Positions 3,381 through 37,706 of a stretch of DNA of 42,340 nucleotides are shown piece by piece. Source of the DNA: Pseudohongiellaceae bacterium (GTDB taxonomy: Bacteria > Planctomycetota > B15-G4); assembly GCA_047638635.1 (NCBI GenBank), contig JBLIMM010000003.1, positions 1 to 42,340 on the forward strand, read 5' to 3'. Position numbers and translations under genes: made by a program. The first letter of the stretch is position 1; each line of letters begins with the position of its first letter. A model generated the notes under the pieces. That model was given only the letters and a program-made list of their open reading frames with translations. It ran no database searches and had not been told where the DNA came from.

Positions 3381-4187
3381 CTACTCCAGGTCGAGCGGGC
3401 GCACCCAGATGTTGCGGTAGCGCACCGGGTTTCCGTGGTCTTGCAGGCGAATCGGCCCTGTGTCGTCGTGGGGCTCGTAGCTGGCCACGCGCTTGTGGGC
3501 TGTCTGTCCGATGAACTGCCGGTCGTGGTGCACGACCACACCGTTGTGGATCACCGTGACCGCTGCGGGGGACAGCAGCGTATCGCCGTCGAAGCGCGGC
3601 GCCCGAAAGACGATGTCGTAGGTCTGCCACTCGCCAGGACCGCGGCTGGCATTGACGGCGGGTGGATACTGCCCGTACATCGCTGCGGCCTGTCCATCGG
3701 AGTAGGTGCGATTCTCGAAGCTGTCGAGCACCTGAATCTCGTAGCGGCCCATGAAGAACACGCCGCTATTGCCGCGTCCTTGGCTCTCGCTGGCCCCGTC
3801 GCTGGGGGAGGCCCATTCGATATGCAGCTGCACATCCCCAAATTGCTCTCGAGTTTGGATGTCGCCGGTGCTGTTCACTTGCGCGGCGCCACCGACGATG
3901 TCCCATCCGGCTGGGCCCGTGCCATTCTCCCAAGCTGCCAGGTCGGTGCCGTCGAACAGCACCAGAGCATCGCTTGGTGCCGCGCCCCGCTCTCCGGGGT
4001 CAACGATCGCAGGGGCGGGCCGGGCAGAATCGTGGACGCGCCACAGGCCTCCGGGCAAGAACGGCGTGTCGTCATAGCCCGGTGACTCGTCCGCAGCGGC
4101 GACTGCAGGGGGATCGGGGGCAAAGGACGAAGCTACCGCCATGATGGCGAGGGAGCAGACCAAAACGATACGCAAGGGGCGGGACAT
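3381..4187 (-). CDS. DUF1080 / 3-keto-disaccharide hydrolase family exported protein
   Basis: Signal peptide MSRPLRIVLVCSLAIMAVASS with GGAG SD. Motifs LFDGTDL..W, FGDVQLHIEW, GNSGVF...YEIQVLD, GEWQTYDI, GPIRLQDHGNPVRYRNIW. Confidence 0.9.
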   Translation of the reverse strand: MSRPLRIVLVCSLAIMAVASSFAPDPPAVAAADESPGYDDTPFLPGGLWRVHDSARPAPAIVDPGERGAAPSDALVLFDGTDLAAWENGTGPAGWDIVGGAAQVNSTGDIQTREQFGDVQLHIEWASPSDGASESQGRGNSGVFFMGRYEIQVLDSFENRTYSDGQAAAMYGQYPPAVNASRGPGEWQTYDIVFRAPRFDGDTLLSPAAVTVIHNGVVVHHDRQFIGQTAHKRVASYEPHDDTGPIRLQDHGNPVRYRNIWVRPLDLE

Positions 4188-4362
4188 AGGTGCGGACTCC
4201 GCTGATCCTGATAATCCGGGGGCTGCCAGCATGGCCCTTGGCCGCCGCCATGACTAGACCGGAGTTCTCCTGAGCGCGGTTTGGAGACGGTCGGTGAGGC
4301 GTGCCAGCTGGGAGAACAGCAGGGATGACAAAAAGGATGGCCGAGGGGTTGGCAGCAGGCAG

Positions 4363-4391
4363 CAGACTCAGCGGCTCCTCGTTCCTATAAT
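4363..4391 (+). promoter_or_regulatory. Putative sigma70-type promoter for the carboxylase operon
   Basis: Perfect TATAAT at 4386-4391 in a GC-rich intergenic region, 65 nt before ATG 4457. Weak -35 (CAGACT) at 17-nt spacing. Confidence 0.45.
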
Positions 4392-4456
4392 CTCGCTCCA
4401 CCTATCGACCTGACAGTCATGTCGGTGGGCCTTGAGACCCAGGCTCCGGAGCCAAG

Positions 4457-18548: not shown

Positions 18549-19336
18549 TGGAGACGGTGCGCGACTATGCCTTGGCCGTGGTGACGGGCAGCGAGTTGAC
18601 TGACAAGCTGATACCGCCGCCAAAAGGGCTTGTGGATGAGCCTCGGGGGCCGAGTCTTTTGCTAGAGGCTCCCGGTCGTCCCGAGTTCTTGCGCCCACAG
18701 CCCGGTGCCCCGATGAAAGTCCCGGCGCCCCAGGGCATGGCCGACCCGGAGCAGTTACGGCGCGTGCTCCATGCCTTCGCGAACCACGAGCTACAGGCTG
18801 TCGAGTTGTTCGCTTGGGGACTGCTGGCCTTCCCTGACGCTCCCGCTGAGTTTCGCCGGGGACTGCTCTCGACCCTGGGAGATGAACAGCGACATCTGCA
18901 GCTCTACTTACAGCGGCTCGACGATCTCGATGTGTCCTTCGGGCGTTGGCCCGTGAGTGGCTACTTCTGGAACAAGCTCGAGCACTTCGCCACGCCGCTG
19001 AAGTTCGTTTGTTCCATGTGCCTGACTTTCGAGAACGCGAACCTCGACCACACCCTCGATTACGCCCGAGCCGCCGACTCTGCGGGTGATGAGGCGACAG
19101 CGGCGGCCTTGCGTCAGGTGCACCACGAAGAGCGGGCTCACGTGGCTTTCGGTCTGCGCTGGTTGGAGTCGTTCAAAGATCCTGGCGACTCGCTGATGGA
19201 GGCGTGGCTCAGCGGGCTGTCCTGGCCTCTCCGACCGGCTCTGGCTCGGGGGAGATCGTTCTCGCCCGAAGTGCGCCAAGGCCTGGGCTTCGATGCCGAG
19301 TGGATCGCCTTGCTTGCGGGCGCTCAGCGGCGATGA
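18548..19336 (+). CDS. DUF455-family ferritin-like (di-iron) protein
   Basis: LHAFANHELQAVEL, DEQRH, FENANLD, EERAHVAFGLRW: paired ExxH ligands of a four-helix bundle. Confidence 0.85.
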   Translation: METVRDYALAVVTGSELTDKLIPPPKGLVDEPRGPSLLLEAPGRPEFLRPQPGAPMKVPAPQGMADPEQLRRVLHAFANHELQAVELFAWGLLAFPDAPAEFRRGLLSTLGDEQRHLQLYLQRLDDLDVSFGRWPVSGYFWNKLEHFATPLKFVCSMCLTFENANLDHTLDYARAADSAGDEATAAALRQVHHEERAHVAFGLRWLESFKDPGDSLMEAWLSGLSWPLRPALARGRSFSPEVRQGLGFDAEWIALLAGAQRR

Positions 19337-19373
19337 CCGTGGCCGGGCGCAATGCTCACCCCAAGGGCGCCCT

Positions 19374-20579
19374 GTGTTAGTCCTGGCGAACTTGCACGGC
19401 GAGGCGGTCCTGGCTGGAATGTCAGCAGGGCGCGGGGCCACCCTGCCCCGGGTGCTACTGCAACGGCTCTCAGCCACGGGCACCTTGCTCCGTGTGTTCT
19501 GTACCTCGTCCGATCGCCTGTGGACACCGCAAGCTGTAGATCCTCGTTGTTTGCCTGAGGTGCCGAGTTTCTCTGACTCGGGAGACACGGGTGCACCCAC
19601 GCTCATCCATGGCGAGCCGCCTGCTCTCGCACCCGGTGAACAGCTCCGCCCCTGGATGTCCAGCCCTGTGGGGCATTGCGTTGCAGCGTCTCAGGTGGCC
19701 GTGGCTCAACGGGTGTGCCATCGGCGTTTCGGCCTCGAATTGAGCGAAATTCTGGGATTGGGGCTGCCAGGAGCCCGCATGGTGTCCTCCGTGGAAGAGT
19801 TGCAGCGGCACCTCGCTGATGAGGGCGCTGGCGCCGCGCCGGACGGCCGCTGGGTGCTCAAGCCACCGATGTCCGCTGCGGGGCGTGGGCAGCTGCTGTC
19901 ACCGAATGGCGCCGCCTTGGGCGATCCCTCGTGGCGTGGGCGCGTGGTTGCAGCCTTCGAGCTTCACGGGGAGATGCTCTTCGAGCCCTGGCTGGATCGG
20001 GTTCACGACCTGGGTTGCCGGGGAGAGGTGCTGCAGGGCTCGGTGAAGGTCCTGGGCATGCACGGCCTCGTTGTGGGCCCTACGGGGCACTTTGCGGGAG
20101 TGCTGGTGGCACCAGCCGGCTGTGACGACGAGCGCCTGTCTCAGTCGGTTCGGGGCTTCACTCCAGCTGTGGCAGCCGCCCTGAGCGCAGTCACGGAGCA
20201 GGTGGGCCAGGCCCTCGTTGTGGCGGGGTATGAGGGCCCTTTTGGCGTCGATGCCTTCACCCATCGACTCGCCAGCGGCGAGCTGGTCTTTCGGGGTCTG
20301 TGCGAGATCAACGCCCGGCTGACGTTCGGAAGGGTCGCCGCCGAGTGGTTGCAGCGCGCGGCCCCCGAGGCAGAAGAGCCCGCCCGGCTGTTGTTCGCCC
20401 GTGGCCCACTGGATGCTGCTGTGGAGCAATCACAGCAACGGCGAAGTGCGCTCGACGAAGGGGGACAAAGCCTGGGGGCTGCGGCGTCCCGGTCACGACG
20501 AGTGGTGCCCTTGCTGACGCCTGACGGGAGCCACAGTCGCGCTGGCACGTCGGCCTGGCTTGAGCTCGGCTGTGACTAG
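19374..20579 (+). CDS. ATP-grasp-like ligase of unknown substrate (start uncertain: GTG 19374, or ATG 19333 with a 1-nt frameshift)
   Basis: WVLKPPMSAAGRGQ, FEPWLDR, GYEGPFGVDAF and CEINARLTFG match ATP-grasp Lys, Gly-loop and ExNxR motifs. Confidence 0.72.
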   Translation: MLVLANLHGEAVLAGMSAGRGATLPRVLLQRLSATGTLLRVFCTSSDRLWTPQAVDPRCLPEVPSFSDSGDTGAPTLIHGEPPALAPGEQLRPWMSSPVGHCVAASQVAVAQRVCHRRFGLELSEILGLGLPGARMVSSVEELQRHLADEGAGAAPDGRWVLKPPMSAAGRGQLLSPNGAALGDPSWRGRVVAAFELHGEMLFEPWLDRVHDLGCRGEVLQGSVKVLGMHGLVVGPTGHFAGVLVAPAGCDDERLSQSVRGFTPAVAAALSAVTEQVGQALVVAGYEGPFGVDAFTHRLASGELVFRGLCEINARLTFGRVAAEWLQRAAPEAEEPARLLFARGPLDAAVEQSQQRRSALDEGGQSLGAAASRSRRVVPLLTPDGSHSRAGTSAWLELGCD

Positions 20580-20660
20580 CCGGCATGTCTCACCAGATTC
20601 GTGGTGAAGGTGCGTCGCCTGACGCTGCACGAGGAAACCGAAGAGCCGGAAGAACGGTCA

Positions 20661-20833
20661 GGTCAGAGCCCCGGCCAACGATAGCTGCTGCCCTGAGCCG
20701 TCCTTCCGGACATCATTCGGTTGATCCGTTGGCTGACCGCGCAGCTTGTGAGCTGGGCGATCAACGGGTGGACCAACAAGAGAACCTCGGCAAAATCTTG
20801 GTGGAGCAGCAGTTGCCCCCGTGAGGGTCTGCC
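20661..20833 (+). ncRNA. ssrS: Probable 6S RNA
   Basis: ~173-nt rod with central bubble. CAAC 20676-79/GTTG 20812-15; GCTGCT 20684-89/AGCAGC 20805-10; GCCG 20697-700/CGGC 20788-91; bubble 20701-18/20775-87; 20719-32 pairs with 20761-74 using three G-U pairs (favouring + strand); terminal CAGCT-TGTG-AGCTG. Carries CCCTGAGCCG just 5' of the bubble as in E. coli 6S. Confidence 0.6.
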
Positions 20834-21014
20834 GTGGGTCTCAGCTGGTATCACCGCGGGATGACAGTCGCGGTGTGTCGAAGTCGGGAGAGGCCGCGTG
20901 AGCGACTTGGGTGGTCGCCCCACTTCTGAGCGGATTTACACGGGGGCCTACAGCGGGTAACCCACAAAAAAGACTTGGGAGCTGCGAAGTGTTGTGAGCT
21001 TGTGTACGCGGGGC

Positions 21015-21953
21015 TCAGTCTGCGGTGAAACTGAACTGCTTCTCGAGCTGCGTGTGGGCTACGCCGGCGACCTCGACGTAGGGGTAGATCAGGTAGTTCA
21101 GGGGCGCTGCGGCCTGGGGCGGGTCGAGGGTCAGATCTCGTCCGACGGTGAAGGCGAGGCGGTCGGGAGTCAGGTGGCCGAAGTAGTACTCCTTCAGCTC
21201 GGGGTGCTTATCCGCCTCAGAAATGTCACAGGCTGACCAGCGGCCGTCGGCCTCAAACCAAGCCCAGCAGTGGTAGCCCCCGATGGAGCCGGCGTTGCTG
21301 TCCCGGGGCAGGGGAAAGCCCATCTCGAAGCGGGCTGGGATCTTGTTGCCGCGGCACAGGGCGATGAAGAGGCTGTGAAAGTCGGTGCAGTTGCCGTGGC
21401 CGCTGTCGCAGACCCAGAGGGCGTCGCCCCGTCCCCAATCGCCACCGGCGGGCTTGTTGTAGGTGACCTGCTCATCCACGAGATCGTAGAGCTGCCGGGG
21501 GGCGACGGCCTCGGGAGCAGCCTTCACGAGCTGGGTCACTGCCGCAGCGCCCACGGGCACCATGGCATTGGATTGCAAGAAGAGCTGCCGCTGTCCAGGG
21601 CTGAGCTGAGCTCCCGACTGGGGCTTCACCTCGCTGCGATGCACCGAGTACACCACCTTCAAGGGGATCCGGCCGGAGGAGTCGGCGCGAGCTTCGGTGT
21701 AGAGCAGGCGGTTGCCATAGCGCTCTTCGGTGGTGAAACGCGAGTCTCCCGGGACGTCCACGGTCTCGATCTCGATCTGCTGGTGCGCGCCATTCTGGGC
21801 CACAGGCAGCCAGATGCGCGCCACGGCCCCAGGGGCCAAGTCGGTGATCGTTGCCCCGTAGGTGAAGCTGAACGACCGTCCCGCAGGCTCGTCAAGGGAA
21901 GCGCAGCTCGTGAGCATCAGCGCCAAGACGAAGAGCAAACGTAGGCTGGGCAT
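21015..21953 (-). CDS. Transglutaminase-like (Cys-His-Asp) domain lipoprotein
   Basis: MPSLRLLFVLALMLTSC lipobox. GNCTDFHSLF, GYHCWAWF and W...D catalytic triad motifs. Confidence 0.87.
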   Translation of the reverse strand: MPSLRLLFVLALMLTSCASLDEPAGRSFSFTYGATITDLAPGAVARIWLPVAQNGAHQQIEIETVDVPGDSRFTTEERYGNRLLYTEARADSSGRIPLKVVYSVHRSEVKPQSGAQLSPGQRQLFLQSNAMVPVGAAAVTQLVKAAPEAVAPRQLYDLVDEQVTYNKPAGGDWGRGDALWVCDSGHGNCTDFHSLFIALCRGNKIPARFEMGFPLPRDSNAGSIGGYHCWAWFEADGRWSACDISEADKHPELKEYYFGHLTPDRLAFTVGRDLTLDPPQAAAPLNYLIYPYVEVAGVAHTQLEKQFSFTAD

Positions 21954-22091
21954 GGTCGGTCTCAGAAGGGTGGGCAGGCGGATCATGGCGAGGCCAAAGA
22001 GACGGGTCAAGGTCGCTCCAACCCCATGCTGCGGCCCTGTGTCTGGTAGTGTCTGCTGCCTGCTGATTGCCACCTTGTTGAGGATGTTCAT

Positions 22092-23405: not shown

Positions 23406-24851
<1,446 letters not shown>

Positions 24852-24953
24852 GGCGGGAGCTTAACCTGCATGTCTCACCAGGCTCCGCGGCGGCTCTCAT
24901 GGAGCCTTTGGGCTTGCTGGGCGAGAGGGGCTGACGAGGCCGTTTTTGGGTCC

Positions 24954-24992
24954 ACAGAAAAGCGCAGGCCGTGCGAAGCACGACCTGCGCTT
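24954..24992 (-). terminator. Intrinsic terminator on the minus strand
   Basis: Minus strand reads GCGCAGGUCGUGC-UUC-GCACGGCCUGCGC-UUUUCUGU: a 13-bp GC-rich stem with one U-G pair (an A-C mismatch on the + strand) followed by a U-tract. Confidence 0.75.
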
Positions 24993-25552
24993 GCCGCGCG
25001 GACAACGTCCGTGTGGCTAAATGGATAACTCTGTACTGATTGCCGAAGGCGCTACGGAGAGGGGGAGACGCGGTTTGTACCGGGTCGCTGCAGGTCGTTC
25101 ATCCCGCAGCCCCGTGAGGGGTCCTGGCAACTCTGTGGTCGCCGGCCTTGCTGCGAGATCTAACCCCGTCGGGCTCACCTCGCGGCCGAGTCGGTTCCCG
25201 GGCCTTCATTCAGTGATGTGCGTCGTGTTGTCAGGGATTCTTGGACGTGGGTGGCCGTCGTTTGAAGCCCCGGAGAAGCATGTCGCGAACGGTGGACGTT
25301 GCCCGCCGCACTCCGCCCCTCAAGAGGGGCTCTGACATGTTTCACACCTAGAAGAATACGGGATCGAATGTCCCGAACATAGTGGCAGCTTGGTGTGCTC
25401 TTGTCTGTCGCCGTTGCGTAACGGTTGTCACTTATGAGCGGCGCCCTCATGCCCGCAGTGACGGACACGGCTTGATCACAAGCCATCCTCTGGGCTGCGG
25501 GGCTGAGCGGGTCCTGAAAAGACCGCGACAAATCAAATGGGCGGGCTGCCAT
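24954..25552 (-). ncRNA. Candidate large structured RNA (unassigned family)
   Basis: Nested multi-branch helices across an intergenic region with no convincing ORF, most G-U pairs favouring the minus strand, ending in the terminator above (see findings). Confidence 0.45.
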
Positions 25553-25689
25553 GAACGGCCCAGTGTGATCGTCACAAGGGGCCTAGCGAGTTTTGGGTTG
25601 GTCACCCTCCGCCCCCGTCGGGCGTCGTCCTGCCGGTGTCGACCGGAGAAGACGGAGTGGTGACGAACCTTTTCTCTCGTGCCGCAGGG

Positions 25690-27225
25690 TCAGACGATCA
25701 CCTTGGGTTGCTTCACGGCTCGGACCTCGTCGGGCCGGCCGATGCTGCGGGAGTAGGGGGCGTGCTTGACGTACTCCGCACCCTCCTCGGTGGCGCACTC
25801 ATCGACAATGGCCCGCATGACCTCGATAAAGCGATCGAGGGTCCCTTTCGACTCGGTCTCTGTGGGCTCGATCATCATGGCTTCGGGCACGATCAGCGGG
25901 AAGTAGACCGTGGGCGGGTGAATGCCGTAGTCGATCAGCCGCTTGGCGACATCAGTGGCCTTGATGCCGTTGGGTAGCCCCTTGGCTGTGACCACGAACT
26001 CGTGCATGCAGGGCTCGTCGACCCACACCCGGTACACATCCCGCAGCTTCACTCGCAGGTAGTTGGCGTTGAGCACCGCGTTGTCGGCGATGGCCAACAT
26101 GCCCTCGGGACCATTGGCGCGCATGTAGGTGTAGCTGCGCACCATCACCCCAGCGCTGGTGAGGTATCCACGGGTTCGTCCGATGGACTTCTCTGACTCT
26201 TCGACGATTTCGAACCGGGGACCGCTCGCCTCTTCGTGCCGGGCAATCTTGGGCACGGGCAGGTAGGGGGCCAGGTTCGCGCCCACCGCGATGGGCCCAG
26301 CGCCAGGCCCACCGCCGCCATGGGGCTGGCTGAAGGTCTTGTGCAGGTTGAAGTGCATCACATCCACGCCGAAGTCGCCGGGGCGAGTGCGGCCCAGGAT
26401 GGCGTTCATGTTGGCGCCGTCCATGTAGACCAGACCGCCGGCTTCACGAATGGCGTCGCAGACGTTCTTGATGTTGGGCTCGAACAGACCCAGGGTCGAC
26501 GGGTTGGTGATCATCAGCCCAGCGATCGAATCGCCGCTGCCGATCTTGGCCGCCAGGTCGTCCATGTCGACCCGACCCCTAGGATCACTTTTGAGCTCTC
26601 GGGTGATGAAGCCAGCCATGGAGCAGCTGGCGGGGTTCGTGCCGTGGGCACTATCGGGGATCAAGATGACGTTGCGGTTCTGGCCGCCATTGTCATCGAG
26701 ATACGCGCGCATGACCATCAGCGCGGTGAGCTCGCCGTGGGCACCAGCAGCCGGGTGCAGGCTCACCGAGTGCAAGCCGGACACGGCCTTCAAGATCTCT
26801 TCGACCCGCCAGCAGATCTCAAGCTGTCCCTGCATCTGATCTTCTGTTTGCAGCGGATGCATGGACGCCAAGCCGGGCAGCCCGCTGACCCGCTCGTTGA
26901 TCAGCGGGTTGTACTTCATGGTGCACGAGCCCAACGGGTAGAAGGCGTTGGCGATGGAGAAGTTGAGCGAGCTGAGCCGGGTGTAGTGGCGCTGAGTGTC
27001 GAGCTCGCCTACCTCGGGCAGCTCGGCGGGCTCGGCGCGCAGGGCGAAGTCGGGCAGCACCGACCCGGGGTCCATGTCGTCGTAGCCAGCGGGGGGCGGG
27101 CGCACGCCGCGCCGGTCGGCCACCGAGACGTCGAAGATGGTCAGGGGCGGGTTGTCGATCTTCAGCTTCGGCGCCTGTCGCGTCGCGTTGGGTGCTGCTG
27201 CTGGGGTGTCGGTGGCGTTGCTCAT
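25690..27225 (-). CDS. gcvPB: Glycine dehydrogenase (decarboxylating) subunit 2
   Basis: YPLGSCTMKYNP, PAAGAHGE, PDSAHGTNPAS, YMDGANMNA, HFNLHKTFSQPHGGGGPG (PLP Lys), IEPTETES. Confidence 0.95.
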   Translation of the reverse strand: MSNATDTPAAAPNATRQAPKLKIDNPPLTIFDVSVADRRGVRPPPAGYDDMDPGSVLPDFALRAEPAELPEVGELDTQRHYTRLSSLNFSIANAFYPLGSCTMKYNPLINERVSGLPGLASMHPLQTEDQMQGQLEICWRVEEILKAVSGLHSVSLHPAAGAHGELTALMVMRAYLDDNGGQNRNVILIPDSAHGTNPASCSMAGFITRELKSDPRGRVDMDDLAAKIGSGDSIAGLMITNPSTLGLFEPNIKNVCDAIREAGGLVYMDGANMNAILGRTRPGDFGVDVMHFNLHKTFSQPHGGGGPGAGPIAVGANLAPYLPVPKIARHEEASGPRFEIVEESEKSIGRTRGYLTSAGVMVRSYTYMRANGPEGMLAIADNAVLNANYLRVKLRDVYRVWVDEPCMHEFVVTAKGLPNGIKATDVAKRLIDYGIHPPTVYFPLIVPEAMMIEPTETESKGTLDRFIEVMRAIVDECATEEGAEYVKHAPYSRSIGRPDEVRAVKQPKVIV

Positions 27226-31160: not shown

Positions 31161-34100
31161 CTAGTCGTTGCCCTCCTCCAGGCTCACGGTGACTTCGCTG
31201 CCACCGGCTTTGAGGCGAACTGTGTCCGTGAAGACCGACTTGCCGTCCTCAAAGACCGCTACGGAGTAGTTGCCCGTGGGAAGGCGCCCCAGACGCCGGC
31301 GATTGGGCTGGGTGTTCGATCCGCTCATTAGGGTAGAGATGGACGTGAGCTGGGTAGGCACGGCCCCTTGAGGACCAGCGAGCTGGATCGTGAGCTGACG
31401 ACCCAGGAAGGGGCCCAGTTCGGCGAAGATTTCGACGCCCCGTTCGATGTGGACGTCGCGCTCATCCACCTCGCCTTGGCGCACGCTGAGATCGTCGAGG
31501 AGGGTCAGGGCCCAGTTGTCTCCACCAAAAGCCAAGGTCCAGGAGCCCGACTCGAGGCTGTTCACGGTGTAGTGCCCGCCGGCATCACTGGTCACTTCTG
31601 AGAGGGTACTGAGCCAGCGTCCGGTGGTGTTGTTGCGAGCCCAAATCGGCACGTCGGCCACGGGTTTGCCTTCCGGACCCAGGACGATGCCGCTCACGGC
31701 GCCGCCCTCGTCCAGCTCGATCACCTGCTTGAAGCCCTCGCTGCCCTCGCGCACGGCAATGTCTGAGACCCTGGTGATGGCCCAACCTTTCTTGCCCATA
31801 CCCATCATGTTCGTGCCACCAGCCTGCAGCGTGTAGGTCCCGGCGGGGAGGTGCTCGAAGCTGAATATGCCGTCCTTGTCCGAGTAAGCCTCGCCCACTC
31901 GGCCACCCATGCTCTCGATGAAGCGGCTGCGCGGGCGGCCGTCGTCGCTGCGTTCCAGGAGGACGCGAATACCGCTGAGGCGCTCACCGGTTTGGGAACG
32001 GGTCTCGCCCCGGAGGACTGCACCAGGAATATCGATGTCGTGTTGGCGCCGGGCTTCGTCCCCGATGGTCACGGTCGAGAAGGTGGGCGTAGAAGGCTGG
32101 CTGCCACCGCCCACGGTGGTTCCCGAGGGGATGACCTGGACAAGGTAGTCCCCAGGTTTGATGCCCTTGATGGAGTAGTGCCCATTCTCGTCGGTGCCTG
32201 AGAACTTGGTCCCCGGAGGGCCGTCTTCTCGAACGACGACGACCATGGCGTCTTCTTCAGGGCCGCCGCTGCTCATGACGACGCCTTCGAGGAGGCAGCC
32301 CGTCTCATGGGGTGCGCCCAGGTCGACTTTCTGCACCGCATCTAGCTCGAGTTCGACCGTTTCGATGGTGAGATCGTTGACCATGTTGGCCGGATTGTCA
32401 GAGCCGAGGCTCAAGGAGAAGTCCAAGCGGATGACGTTGAAAGTGCCGGCGTTGAGACCGGAGACCACGTAGGTACCGTCGTTCTCGGTTTTGGTTCGTT
32501 TCATCTGCTTGCCCAGAACGTCGGAGACCATCACGGGCACGCCGCTTTCGGGCCGGGCGTCCGGGCCATAGACCGTGCCGTGAATGGTGCCCCCGGGTGG
32601 CAAGGTCACCAGCCCGATGTCGTAGGTCTGACCAGGGCGCAAGGCCAGGTTGGGGATGACCACCTCGCGGTGATCTTGGTCTTGAATGGTCAAGGTCACT
32701 GGGTCATCACCCAGACCGCCCAACTCAAAGAGACCGTCGCCAAGAGTGGTCGTCTCTTGAACGGGTCCGGAGAACATCTGTTTCCAGGCGTTCATGGCGT
32801 CGGTCTTGCCTGTGGTCACTTTCGCTCCGGGGATGCCTTGGCCCGTTCTCCCTGACACCACTTGACCGGTCACCGAGGACTCTTCGGAAACCATGATGAT
32901 CACTCCGCTGGCTCCGCTGCCTTCTGTGACCTCAACGGTGGGCAAGAGAGTTTGGGCGTAACCGTCTGCCATGAGCATCAAGCTAAACAGGCCGGGGGTG
33001 ACGTCCTCCATGGTGAAGCGGCCTTCGTCGTCGGAGACTTCCAAGGGCGCGGGGAGGCTGCTGAGTTTATCGCCGATTTCCATCATGGCCGACATGTCCA
33101 TGCTCGCCTCAGCGGGGAGCAGTCGCAGCTGGTAGTCAGTGAGCGGATCGCCGCTTGAGAGGTCGATGGCAATACCGGTGATGGCTCTCTTGGGCTTGAT
33201 CGTGATGACGAAGTCACTGGCTCCGGCGGCCACGTCGAGAGAGTTGCTCACGTAGCCTGATGCACTGGCTTCTACGCGTATCTCGCCTTCTTCGTAGCCC
33301 CAGAGGGTGAAGTGCCCTTGGTCATCGACGTCTTCTTTGGCTCTGAGGCCCTTGTCCTTCATGGAGCGCATGCTGAACATGGCGGGGGGCAGGAATCCCT
33401 TGACCATTGCGCCGTTCACGGGTTCTCCGTCGGTCCCTAGCACCCGGCCGGCCACGGACAGCCCCCGGTCGGCGACCAAGATCACTTCAGAGACCACCTG
33501 GCCAGGGAGAACTTCGATCGTCTCGGTGGCTGTGGGACGGAAGCCTCCCTTGTACAGGGCCAGTCGATAGCCACCGTTCTTGAGAGATGTGAACGCGAAT
33601 CGCCCTGCGTCGTCTGTACTCACGATTCTGTCTGGGCTGGTTTCCCCTTGAGAGCCCATGTCGCTGATTGAGATGGACGTGGCTTGGATCTGCACCCTGG
33701 TCTGAGCCACGGGCTGCTCTTTGTCGTCGAGCACGAGACCTTCGATGGTGCCCCCTCGAAGGACCACAAGGATCTCTTCGGCGACTTGGCCAGGGGAGAG
33801 CCCGGCCACCTGTCGGTCCGTAGATTGGTAACCAAGGTCTGCGGAAGTCTTCAGAATGAGTGGGACGTTGCTAGGGGCTGGGGCGATCTCGAAGCGGCCA
33901 TCTTGGTCGCTGGTCACCGGGTCGACTGTGGCGAAGAGGCTGGTGCCTTCGAGAATCGCGTAGGGGTCGACTTTCGATCCCCCGGTGATGGTGACCCCTT
34001 GCACGGGTTGGCCCTCCGCGTCCTGGATGGTCCCGCGAAGGATGGCGCCCCGGGTAGCCTCGACCACGAACTCGGCGCCTTCAGCATCTTCGTTACTGGG

Positions 34101-34955: not shown

Positions 34956-37706
34956 ATGACTGCTCGGACCCCTTTGGTTGCCCTGCTCTTCATCGTCGCC
35001 CTGCTCGGGGCGGTGGTGCTGATCCTCGATGAGCCAGCTGGGCGGGCACAGAACGGCCCGGCGGCCGTGCAGGTCTCTGAGGCAGGCGTGGAGCCGCAGG
35101 GCAGTGTGGCGCCGAGGGGGGGCTCCGCTAGCGTCGACGGGCCTACGGTCCAGCGGCTGGCCACAGAGACACTGCAGTTTGCGGACTGGGCCCAGCCCCC
35201 CTTGCCACTCTTGGCAACGGGCAGGGTCACTGGCCGTCTGGTCGATGTGCGCGGCCAAGCGATCGCGGGAGAGCCGGTCGAACTGCTGGTGCCCGACGAC
35301 CCCTGGAGGGTGCTGCTGCGCGACGACGAGAAGGTCGAGCTGGTAGACCGCGGTGTTTCCGACGAGGCGGGCCGTTTTGATCTTGCGGCCCGGGCCGGGG
35401 CGCGCCAGCACTTACGTGGGGGCGGGCTGCGCTGGGCCCGAACCGGCGGCGTGGTCGTGTCCGCAGGTGACGATGTTGAACTCGAGTTGGCCGAAGGCCT
35501 GGCCCTGACGGGTTACGTGTTAGAGCAAGAGAGCGGCCTGCCTGTCCCCGGGGCCTGGGTCGGTTCGTTCTCCGGGACGGACAAGCTGCTCACCCGCGCC
35601 GACCAACGGGGCTTCTTCTCGCTCACGCCCCTGCCTGACGAAGGGGTGTTGATCGGTGCGTTTCTTGAAGGCTACGACATTGGTTATCACGAATCGGTTG
35701 TCCCTGGCTGGGGCCCGCTGACCATCGAACTTCCGCCCGGTCGCCCGGTCCATGGCAGGGTCATTGACCGTCAGAGTGATCAGGGCGTGCCAGGCGCTGC
35801 GGTTGCGCTGGAGCTGAAAAGCGCTGCGCGCGAAGTGGGTAAGCCAGACCCCTTCACTGGACAGCGAACCATCGTCGAATGGACAGCGGTGACGGGGGTC
35901 GATGGGCGCTTCTCCCTCGAAGGCTGTCCGTCGGGGCAGTTTCGCATCTCGGTGACCGCTGACGGCTACGTGCCGGGGGGCTCAGACCGCTATGCGGACA
36001 GAGTGCTCGGCCCGGATCAACAGGTCACCGTGGCGCTGAATCCGGCGGCATTGATCACGGGACAGGTTGTTGTGGAAGGCGGGGCTGCTGCGGTCGGCGC
36101 CCAAGTGGTCCTGCTCAGCACGTCGGGGCCCGTGGCCGAATCTGCAGCAGATGACCAGGGCAGCTTCCTACTCGATCTGTCCACTTGGGATGGCAAGGGC
36201 GCGTTGGTGATCTCTGCCCGGGATGCCGCAGGTCGCAGGGCGAGCCATCGGTTGCGCAAGCGGACGCGCCCCGTGGAGCTGTCGCTGGTGGAGCCGTTGG
36301 TGCTCGGCGTGATGGTCTCGGGGGCCACTGGCCCGCAGGCTGGTGCGCAGGTGGTGATCACGTCAGACGAGGCCGAGCCGACCTTAGGAACCACTGACGC
36401 CGGTGGGCGCGTGCACCTGGTGCATCCGTTGGCGGGGCTCGACATTCGCAGGGCCACGGTGCAAGCGCGCTACGGTGCCGCTGAGTCTCTGCCCCAGACG
36501 ATTATCTTATCGGAGCCTCGCCCCAGTGACCCGCTGATCCTCGATCTCACCGAGGGGGATTGGTTCACCGGTGTTGTGCAGGACATCTACGGCACGCCGA
36601 TTTCCCAGGCCACCGTGACAGTGGGCCATGGTGGTTTTGGGCGCGCCGACAGCTCGGGGTATTTCTCTGTGGGGCCCGTGATCTACGATCCGGCCAAGAC
36701 AGTGGGGCTGCGCGCAGAGGCCCCCGGTTATCACAGGGCGAAGTTGGCGGAGGTCACGCCACAGCAGTCGCTGGTGATCACCCTCGAGCCGGTCGTGTTG
36801 TGGAAGGGGAAGGTCAGCGATGCTGTGACAGGCGAACCTCTCGATGTGTTCCGAGGTCGTGTCTTCGTCGAGAAGTTCGAAGACGGGAAGTCGGTTTGGA
36901 AGCCCGGGGAGCGGGCAGAGGTCACCGGGGTCCCTGGGGAGTTCGCCATTGAGTTGGGCGAGGCTGGCACATTGAAGCTGCAGTTGCGCGCGCCGGAGTA
37001 CATGACCGGCGAGTCACAGCCCGTGCCGTTCGACGGTGTGAACTCGCCCCCTTGGACAGATCTGTTCCTCAATCGTGCAGCCCTACTCGATGTGTTTGTC
37101 AGTGACTCTGCGGGCCGCCCCGTGTCGGGTTACTCGCTTTCGGTGGTCCCAGAGGCACGGGCGCAGAAGAGTGCCTTGCCAGGAGGAAGCGTGCGCAAGA
37201 AGTCGAAGTCGTCCCGCACGGAGCGCGACGGCAAAGTGCGTTTCAATCTGGGAGAGGGCGGCAGCTATCGCCTCGCTTCGGGCCCAGGTGAATGGCTCGA
37301 CGAGAGAGCCTTTACCGTGCGCCCCGGTCCGCCCACCGAACGTTTCATGAACGTTGGCGGGACAGGCTCTGTGTCGGTGGTGGTGCTTGGCGAAGACGGT
37401 GAGATCATGACCCGTCCCAAGGCGTCTGTGCGGTCACTGGGTGCTGATCACAAACACTCAGTAAAGCGTCGCCTTGGCCAGCTGGTCGACGGCGACGAGC
37501 TGGTGGCTAGCGGCCTTCCCGAAGGGCGTTATGAACTCGAAGTACACCAGCGGGGCTACGTCACAGTCAGCCGCGAGATCTGGATCTCTGTCGGTGGCGT
37601 GAGTCGCGAAAGCGTTGAACTTGAACTGGAGCCGCCGCTGGAAGCCGGCCAGCTCAATCAGCAAATGATTGAGCAGCTCAAGGCCCTGGGATACATAGGC
37701 GGCTGA
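34956..37706 (+). CDS. Large exported/membrane-anchored carboxypeptidase-regulatory-like repeat protein with C-terminal LxxLGY motif
   Basis: N-terminal hydrophobic helix. Repeats such as VTGRLVDVRGQAIAG, GRVIDRQSDQGVPGA, GVVQDIYGTPISQA. Ends EQLKALGYIGG. Confidence 0.8.
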   Translation: MTARTPLVALLFIVALLGAVVLILDEPAGRAQNGPAAVQVSEAGVEPQGSVAPRGGSASVDGPTVQRLATETLQFADWAQPPLPLLATGRVTGRLVDVRGQAIAGEPVELLVPDDPWRVLLRDDEKVELVDRGVSDEAGRFDLAARAGARQHLRGGGLRWARTGGVVVSAGDDVELELAEGLALTGYVLEQESGLPVPGAWVGSFSGTDKLLTRADQRGFFSLTPLPDEGVLIGAFLEGYDIGYHESVVPGWGPLTIELPPGRPVHGRVIDRQSDQGVPGAAVALELKSAAREVGKPDPFTGQRTIVEWTAVTGVDGRFSLEGCPSGQFRISVTADGYVPGGSDRYADRVLGPDQQVTVALNPAALITGQVVVEGGAAAVGAQVVLLSTSGPVAESAADDQGSFLLDLSTWDGKGALVISARDAAGRRASHRLRKRTRPVELSLVEPLVLGVMVSGATGPQAGAQVVITSDEAEPTLGTTDAGGRVHLVHPLAGLDIRRATVQARYGAAESLPQTIILSEPRPSDPLILDLTEGDWFTGVVQDIYGTPISQATVTVGHGGFGRADSSGYFSVGPVIYDPAKTVGLRAEAPGYHRAKLAEVTPQQSLVITLEPVVLWKGKVSDAVTGEPLDVFRGRVFVEKFEDGKSVWKPGERAEVTGVPGEFAIELGEAGTLKLQLRAPEYMTGESQPVPFDGVNSPPWTDLFLNRAALLDVFVSDSAGRPVSGYSLSVVPEARAQKSALPGGSVRKKSKSSRTERDGKVRFNLGEGGSYRLASGPGEWLDERAFTVRPGPPTERFMNVGGTGSVSVVVLGEDGEIMTRPKASVRSLGADHKHSVKRRLGQLVDGDELVASGLPEGRYELEVHQRGYVTVSREIWISVGGVSRESVELELEPPLEAGQLNQQMIEQLKALGYIGG

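Follow-up and report, generated by a model that had tools for sequence, protein, structure and literature searches.

Comparison of two related genomes showed that a non-coding block of about 320 nt, located directly upstream of a gene for a RecQ-family helicase, is under purifying selection, and that it has a conserved capacity to fold that is specific to one strand. The block was found in a 42,340-nt stretch of DNA (hereafter, the window) on contig C3 of G000, a 73% complete Phycisphaerales metagenome-assembled genome, and was compared with its counterpart in G001, which is 88% complete and the sole congener in our comparison set. We tentatively interpret the block (positions 24952-25275, minus strand) as a lineage-restricted structured non-coding RNA of ~300-320 nt, either standing alone or derived from the 3′-end of a longer transcript, and we give this interpretation somewhat less than an even chance. 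The transcription of the block, its start site, and its function are what we infer. An initial annotation, made from the letters of the window, had proposed a single RNA of ~600 nt at this place; the candidate is now trimmed from 600 nt to about 320 nt, and its strand is fixed as minus.

The gap between gcvPB and recQ

The initial annotation had described the 838 bp between gcvPB and recQ as lacking a convincing open reading frame, and our analysis agrees. GC content at codon positions 1/2/3 is flat (~0.6/0.6/0.6) in all five gap ORFs tested, in contrast to 0.63-0.68/0.44-0.45/0.82-0.85 in recQ, gcvPB, and gcvPA, and two gap ORFs (125 aa and 104 aa) had no match in Pfam. The alignment of the block with G001 contains five one-base indels, and a translated comparison gave short matches in all six frames, as conservation at the nucleotide level predicts. 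A conserved small protein, one of the possibilities raised at the outset, is therefore excluded, and a small protein gene or leader peptide in the block was ruled out by the indels, the flat GC3, the six-frame matches, and the lack of a Pfam match. We also rejected a decayed gene as the origin of the gap: translated comparison with the gcvPB-recQ gaps of other genera, and with an extra 8.3 kb found in G001, gave no similarity.

The window and G001 are syntenic; the gene next upstream of the gap is gcvPB in the window, whereas it is a gene for a BNR-repeat protein in G001. The 8.3 kb that lie between the gap and gcvPB in G001 (contig C14:21335-29690, set against window 25274-25689) are absent from the window. 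Their products are the BNR-repeat protein of 762 aa, a DUF7948/beta-propeller protein of 855 aa, and, from the opposite strand, a 678-aa ClC chloride channel carrying CBS and TrkA-C domains; the stretch showed no mobile-element genes. The helicase encoded downstream of the block scores under the cut-off of the RecQ equivalog model, and its Pfam domains are DEAD and Helicase_C only. Contig C319 of G000 (3390-4439) encodes a second RecQ paralogue that is longer (ORF of ~692-718 aa) and 42% identical over the helicase core; G001 has it too, and most of the family genomes searched gave matches of that level. The positions of all features discussed below are collected in Table 1.

Table 1 Features of the gcvPB-recQ region, in window coordinates; features of the candidate RNA are given from 5′ to 3′ on the minus strand
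Feature	Position	Strand	Basis or remark
gcvPB, upstream of the gap	25690-27225	minus	NCBIfam GcvPB, 647.8 bits (cut-off 441)
Gap between gcvPB and the RecQ-family helicase gene	24852-25689		838 bp
RecQ-family helicase gene (recQ), downstream of the element	23406-24851	minus	481 aa; TIGR00614, 338.9 bits (cut-off 219.8)
Upstream half of the gap (annotated domains 1 and 2)	25276-25689	minus	Homologous to G001 yet decayed; outside the conserved element
Conserved non-coding block, candidate RNA (annotated domain 3 and terminator)	24952-25275	minus	Alignment with G001
5′ hairpin, 7 + 4 bp, invariant loop region GACGGCCACCCACGUC	25232-25272	minus	Consensus fold
Invariant unpaired 11-mer CACGACGCACA	25217-25227	minus	Alignment with G001
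Long-range helix, 5′ strand UGAAGGC, closing the multi-branch core	25202-25208	minus	RNAalifold
Hairpin inside the stem annotated at 25143-88	25153-25183	minus	Only 3 + 5 bp common to both species
Longest invariant run, 19 nt, GAGUUGCCAGGACCCCUCA	25115-25133	minus	Alignment with G001
Hairpin, 7 bp (annotated helix 25087-94/25103-10)	25087-25110	minus	Consensus fold
Invariant C/U-rich 15-mer GUCUCCCCCUCUCCG, mostly unpaired	25055-25069	minus	Alignment with G001
Long-range helix, 3′ strand GCCUUCG, including the annotated cUUCGg	25044-25050	minus	RNAalifold
Small hairpin directly 5′ of the terminator	24993-25017	minus	Only outer 3 bp and inner 4 bp common to both species
Terminator hairpin, 15 bp, loop UUC	24960-24992	minus	-30 kcal/mol in both species
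U-tract after the terminator hairpin, UUUUCUGU	24952-24959	minus	G001 counterpart UUUUCUAU
Spacer from terminator to recQ start	24852-24951	minus	Poorly conserved, ~50% with large gaps; last ~17 nt common to both species

Constraint is confined to the recQ-proximal part of the gap

A blastn search of 40 relatives returned a single real match, to the congener G001, which covers window positions 24952-25273 at 78% identity (E 1.5e-61). Over the whole block, 247 of the 322 alignment columns (77%) are identical. At four-fold degenerate sites the two genomes are 57% identical in recQ and 69% identical in gcvPB. Conservation within the block is patchy, with invariant runs of 11-19 nt, and is lower than that of the 6S RNA of the genus (~93% in the body).

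The upstream half of the gap behaved differently from the block. Its global alignment with G001 scored 14.0, versus 3.0 ± 1.5 for shuffled sequences (z 7.2; none of 300 reached the score), with 168 of 467 columns identical and 124 gap columns. Its local similarity to G001 was not significant (23 of 200 shuffles reached it), and blastn could not align it. Since both the block and the upstream half are collinear and homologous with G001, the whole gap was present in the common ancestor; and since the upstream half has decayed while the block has been kept, only the recQ-proximal 320 nt are under constraint.

A second conserved non-coding stretch lies elsewhere in the window, in the gap between two convergent ORFs (20580-21014, flanked by 19293-20579 on the plus strand and 21015-22091 on the minus strand). 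Its two blocks (~20645-20735 and ~20865-20975) are 84% and 77% identical to G001, contain hairpin-like repeats, and had no Rfam or tRNA match; they are split by ~120 nt that are absent from G001, which has an extra ~1.5 kb after them. From this stretch (20630-20980) it follows that conserved non-coding blocks are not rare between the two genomes.

The consensus fold is specific to the minus strand

We folded the two-sequence alignment of G000 and G001 with RNAalifold and compared the consensus energies with those of column-shuffled alignments (60 per strand). On the minus strand, the consensus energy of the block is -104.3 kcal/mol versus -71.6 ± 5.2 for the shuffled alignments (z -6.3; 0/60 reach it), whereas on the plus strand it is -86.2 versus -85.9 (z -0.05; 26/60 reach it). 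The asymmetry holds for each sub-block, with z values for the minus and plus strands, respectively, of -3.25 and +1.19 for the body without the terminator, -2.96 and +1.62 for the body without both the terminator and the last hairpin, -2.99 and +0.56 for the core, and -3.44 and +1.01 for the 5′ hairpin.

The consensus fold comprises 77 pairs, 61 of which never vary, while 14 changed on one side and 2 on both; after every one of the 14 one-sided changes, the minus strand still pairs there, as G.U or A-U. RNAalifold picks the consensus structure so as to avoid broken pairs, and this count is therefore partly circular. Covariation, which the initial annotation had put forward as a check, was not significant with the two sequences (116/500 shuffles reached the observed score). 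When the pairs predicted for one species were transferred to the other, the changed pairs that were kept numbered 13/27 (window as reference) and 9/32 (G001 as reference) on the minus strand and 8/36 and 6/26, respectively, on the plus strand; the changed pairs broken on the minus strand were 14/27 and 23/32. The minus strand fares better in this transfer, yet much of each single-sequence fold is not common to both species.

Folding of single sequences gave less contrast between strands. The 599 nt of the originally proposed RNA do fold better than dinucleotide shuffles, but equally so on the two strands (z -3.05 minus, -3.08 plus), and this measure consequently shows no strand preference. The single-sequence z of the block is -3.6, which by a small margin lies beyond all 40 control values (20 segments of 330 nt across the window, both strands; mean z ~-0.4). 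As the control segments never fell below -2.73, the excess folding is real but modest. The best-folding controls were 32501-32830 (z -2.48 and -2.73 on the two strands) and 36701-37030 (z -2.64, minus strand).

Predicted architecture of the candidate RNA

Read from 5′ to 3′ on the minus strand, the RNA would begin with the 5′ hairpin and pass through an invariant single-stranded stretch into the long-range helix, which would close a core of several short hairpins; the core would also hold the invariant C/U-rich 15-mer, and the small hairpin and the terminator would follow it. Every helix named in the initial annotation does pair as described there, and the minimum free energy (MFE) fold of the 599 nt contains them all. 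Likewise, the motif ACAGAGTT does occur twice on the minus strand (starts at 25136 and 25034).

The 5′ hairpin carries three one-sided changes, all to G.U or A-U on the minus strand, and its most conserved run has a short GACG...CGUC symmetry. All 7 pairs of the long-range helix are invariant, and hence it offers no covariation. One of its strands accounts for the bases that had been read as a cUUCGg loop near 25045: this loop does not form a real hairpin (-2.8 kcal/mol), and the long-range helix is the more plausible pairing for them. Within the core, the hairpin at 25153-25183 shows a compensatory change of one pair (A-U to C-G) plus three one-sided changes; in the 7-bp hairpin, a single pair differs on both sides (G-C to U.G) and another on one side. 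The 19-nt invariant run covers the 3′ arm of a hairpin at 25126-25143 together with a small CCC/GGG hairpin. The 15-mer is possibly a site of base pairing or protein binding. The small hairpin before the terminator had been said to favor the plus strand; this is so in the window (-19.2 kcal/mol versus -12.6 on the minus strand), but the preference is not kept in G001.

The terminator and the start of recQ

The annotated stem and U-tract at 24954-24992 withstood comparison, with a minus-strand folding energy of -28 to -30 kcal/mol. A 15-bp GC-rich stem followed by a U-tract (UUUUCU), as in an intrinsic terminator, is present in both species and on the minus strand only. Thirteen of the 15 pairs are invariant, and two changed on one side to G.U; for one of these changes (T>C on the plus strand), the minus-strand pair becomes G.U, whereas the plus strand would have a C-A mismatch there. 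The conserved block ends immediately beyond the U-tract. A simple terminator scan did not flag the hairpin at 24954-24992 and gave only a weak 5-bp candidate at 25375-25359. The latter site, on the minus strand in the unconserved half of the gap, consists of the 5-bp stem followed by UAUUCUUCUA; its hairpin is not kept in G001, though the flanking CGATC.CGTA.TCTT letters are.

The terminator lies 60-100 nt from the start codon of recQ. The conserved last ~17 nt before the ATG (24852-24870) contain a TANNNT box (TAAGCT/TAGACT) 6-7 nt upstream of this codon, which suggests that recQ may have its own promoter downstream of the terminator. These ~17 nt contain no purine-rich ribosome-binding site before the recQ start, and the recQ mRNA may be leaderless or carry a very short leader.

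Distribution of the element

The initial annotation could not match the region to known RNA families, and likewise neither the whole window nor four related loci had an Rfam 15 match at the gathering score; to that extent the claim of novelty holds. Between 24700 and 25800, with E values up to 10 admitted, Rfam returned three matches at chance level (E 1.6-7.6), to a microRNA, a lncRNA, and a snoRNA. The search for homologues succeeded for 24952-25275 in the congener alone: beyond G001, blastn in the 40 relatives gave only two chance-level matches of 26-50 nt, and an nhmmer search of the sequence preceding recQ orthologues in seven further genomes of the family was negative. The element is present in a single copy in G000. 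A covariance model of the block body (R1, 285 positions) was run on 16 genomes of the family and 42 of the order and returned nothing beyond G000, G001, and one match at E 0.5.

A pattern scan of species-representative genomes recovered G001 alone, and a scan of the JGI metagenomes recovered one contig, which appears identical to G001 in the element where we compared the two by eye. A looser pattern yielded 24 loci, 23 of which R1 identified as chance matches. A 151-nt contig from one ice-metagenome run (three DNA runs were examined) represents a third, G001-like variant over 25051-25144 (94 nt). It equals the G001 state at seven of the eight listed differences (read by eye from the G001 sequence), and it carries the G001 state at the hairpin at 25087-25110. 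It is not independent evidence.

gcvPB and recQ are adjacent in four genera, with a spacing that ranges from ~10-40 nt (G004) to 1.1-1.3 kb (G009 and G008). The gap of G008 contains a histidine-kinase-like ORF on the opposite strand, and the 1.1-kb gap of G009 has no Pfam match and no terminator-like site. As no recognizable element was found in the other genera searched, it is either an innovation of this genus or has diverged too fast to be recognized. The candidate RNA is thus known from two species of one genus of uncultured organisms.

Promoter, chaperone, targets, and antiterminator

No sigma-70-like promoter with at least 9/12 matches was found on either strand between 24700 and 25800, a looser promoter scan found nothing common to both species, and inspection by eye for sigma-54 and ECF-type motifs found none convincing. 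The 6S RNA genes of the two genomes (G000 contig C311:4424-4614, 46.9 bits; G001 contig C62:20192-20361, 50.8 bits; cut-off 46.4) share ~93% identity and have a conserved TTGACC-N17-TATGAT promoter in front of them, which indicates that the genus does use canonical sigma-70 promoters. Hfq (PF17209) was not found in G000 or G001, whose incompleteness leaves its absence unproven; many sRNAs need no Hfq. The invariant stretches were no better than shuffled motifs at pairing with the start regions of 3202 genes from a crude gene call, and the element paired with the recQ start region no better than shuffles did. One suggestive match, to the 5′ region of the second recQ paralogue, is not conserved in G001.

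When the 3′ arm of the terminator was left out, the consensus fold paired the terminator 5′ arm with the 11-mer CACGACGCACA (in the window, six pairs have p 0.92-0.97), and either species could form such a pairing of 6-8 bp. The 5′ arm has a further complement in the window, of 10 bp, at 25086-25099. The energy of the antiterminator duplex did not exceed that of shuffled bodies, as 37/500 reached it in the window and 321/500 in G001, and the best partners of the terminator arm differ between the species and are not conserved in register.

What kind of element is the block?

Regarding the choice between a large non-coding RNA and an attenuator-like leader that the initial annotation had offered, the structured minus-strand RNA ending at a terminator is supported for ~320 nt, and the lack of a conserved antiterminator leans against a leader. 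A cis-acting 5′ leader of recQ, being a large structured sensor that is riboswitch-like or bound by a protein, in which the terminator would conditionally stop transcription into the gene, is in our estimate a serious but rather doubtful explanation. It would account for the fact that in both species the element and terminator immediately precede recQ and share its strand, although the next gene upstream is not the same; however, the gap is ancestral and collinear, so that this adjacency is inherited synteny and not independent evidence. The pairing of the terminator 5′ arm with CACGACGCACA would enclose the whole core, as in ON-type switches, and the 10-bp complement offers the arm a further partner, but the best partner is not conserved, the duplexes are not above shuffles, and none of the alternative pairings found comes near the terminator in strength (-30 kcal/mol). 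The short spacing in G004, a member of another genus, suggests that recQ may originally have depended on upstream transcription, whereas the conserved ~17 nt before its start suggest that it may now have its own promoter downstream of the terminator. There was also no match to an Rfam riboswitch or leader, and the literature that our search reached contained no recQ leader or riboswitch, though one may still exist in print. More specifically, an ON-type sensing leader (~280 nt, multi-branch), in which a ligand or protein would stabilize the helix between CACGACGCACA and the terminator 5′ arm, block the terminator, and allow transcription of recQ, strikes us as improbable; if true, a recombination or repair helicase would here be governed by a structured-RNA switch for the first time. 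A very strong terminator combined with no conserved antiterminator fits the end of a transcript better than a switch, which is why we prefer a stand-alone or 3′-end-derived RNA over a recQ leader.

The block might instead be conserved as DNA, holding a promoter and binding sites for recQ or for an unseen transcript, or it might simply diverge slowly, with the folds being by-products of a GC-rich sequence. We regard this as unlikely. It would explain the patchiness of the invariant runs, the GACG...CGUC symmetry in the 5′ hairpin, the statistically unsupported covariation, the equal single-sequence folding of both strands, and the presence of another conserved non-coding stretch at 20630-20980. 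Selection on DNA does not, however, predict a consensus fold that is strand-asymmetric in the whole block and in each sub-block; in addition, nearly all substitutions in stems are of the kind that G.U tolerates on the minus strand, the block ends exactly at the hairpin and U-tract, and 320 nt is long for an operator region. The initially proposed RNA of ~600 nt (24954-25552), with three nested domains, is to our mind highly improbable at its full length. The ~320 nt of its third domain and terminator are supported on the minus strand, but domains 1 and 2 (25279-25552) are not. The helices of these domains exist in the window, on the minus strand the upstream half has a single-sequence z of -2.86, and the consensus of its alignment folds slightly better there than shuffles do (z -2.4; 1/60 reach it). 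Against this, the upstream half folds equally well on the plus strand (z -3.05), its structure conservation index is low (0.32 minus, 0.25 plus), and its G001 counterpart, with the poor alignment described above, does not keep the helices of domains 1 and 2 in the consensus, so that the two domains are species-specific sequence with no conserved fold.

Under the preferred interpretation, the 3′ end of the RNA would be made by the strong intrinsic terminator (15-bp hairpin followed by UUUUCU), and the RNA would either stand alone or be released from the 3′ end of a transcript entering from upstream. Its invariant unpaired stretches would let it act in trans, either by pairing with other RNAs or by binding protein, and the terminator would also shield recQ from upstream transcription.

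Relation to known systems and significance

The block resembles the general class of terminator-ended bacterial regulatory RNAs and, judged from its sequence, belongs to no Rfam family. Terminator-ended trans-acting sRNAs, including those derived from 3′-UTRs, share with it a one-strand intergenic non-coding block of narrow taxonomic range, conserved unpaired stretches alongside stem-loops, and an end formed by a strong hairpin and a U-tract. At ~300-320 nt, however, the block is at the long end of this class, and no promoter, target, or chaperone gene was found for it. Attenuating leaders and ON-type riboswitches, of which the pbuE adenine riboswitch is an example, are alike in having a structured region, a terminator 60-100 nt before a co-directional gene, and a possible closing helix that involves the terminator 5′ arm. 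The block differs from them in that its alternative pairing does not exceed chance, lacks a conserved register, and is much weaker than the terminator, and no known aptamer matches. It therefore appears more likely to be a stand-alone or 3′-end-derived RNA than a recQ attenuator.

We used 6S RNA (RF00013), a mid-size structured regulatory RNA of the same genomes, as a yardstick. Unlike 6S, with its ~93% identity and canonical promoter, the block is 77% identical and has no such promoter. That the block itself is a 6S RNA was rejected, as the only RF00013 matches in G000 and G001 are on other contigs. The ends of the block also do not pair to form a rod.

To our knowledge, the regulatory RNAs of Planctomycetota, and those of Phycisphaerae in particular, are almost uncharted. 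Our literature search turned up no dedicated study of small RNAs in Planctomycetota within the sources it reached, though one may still exist in print. A conserved, terminator-ended structured RNA beside a repair helicase gene would be a concrete entry to the RNA biology of the Planctomycetota.
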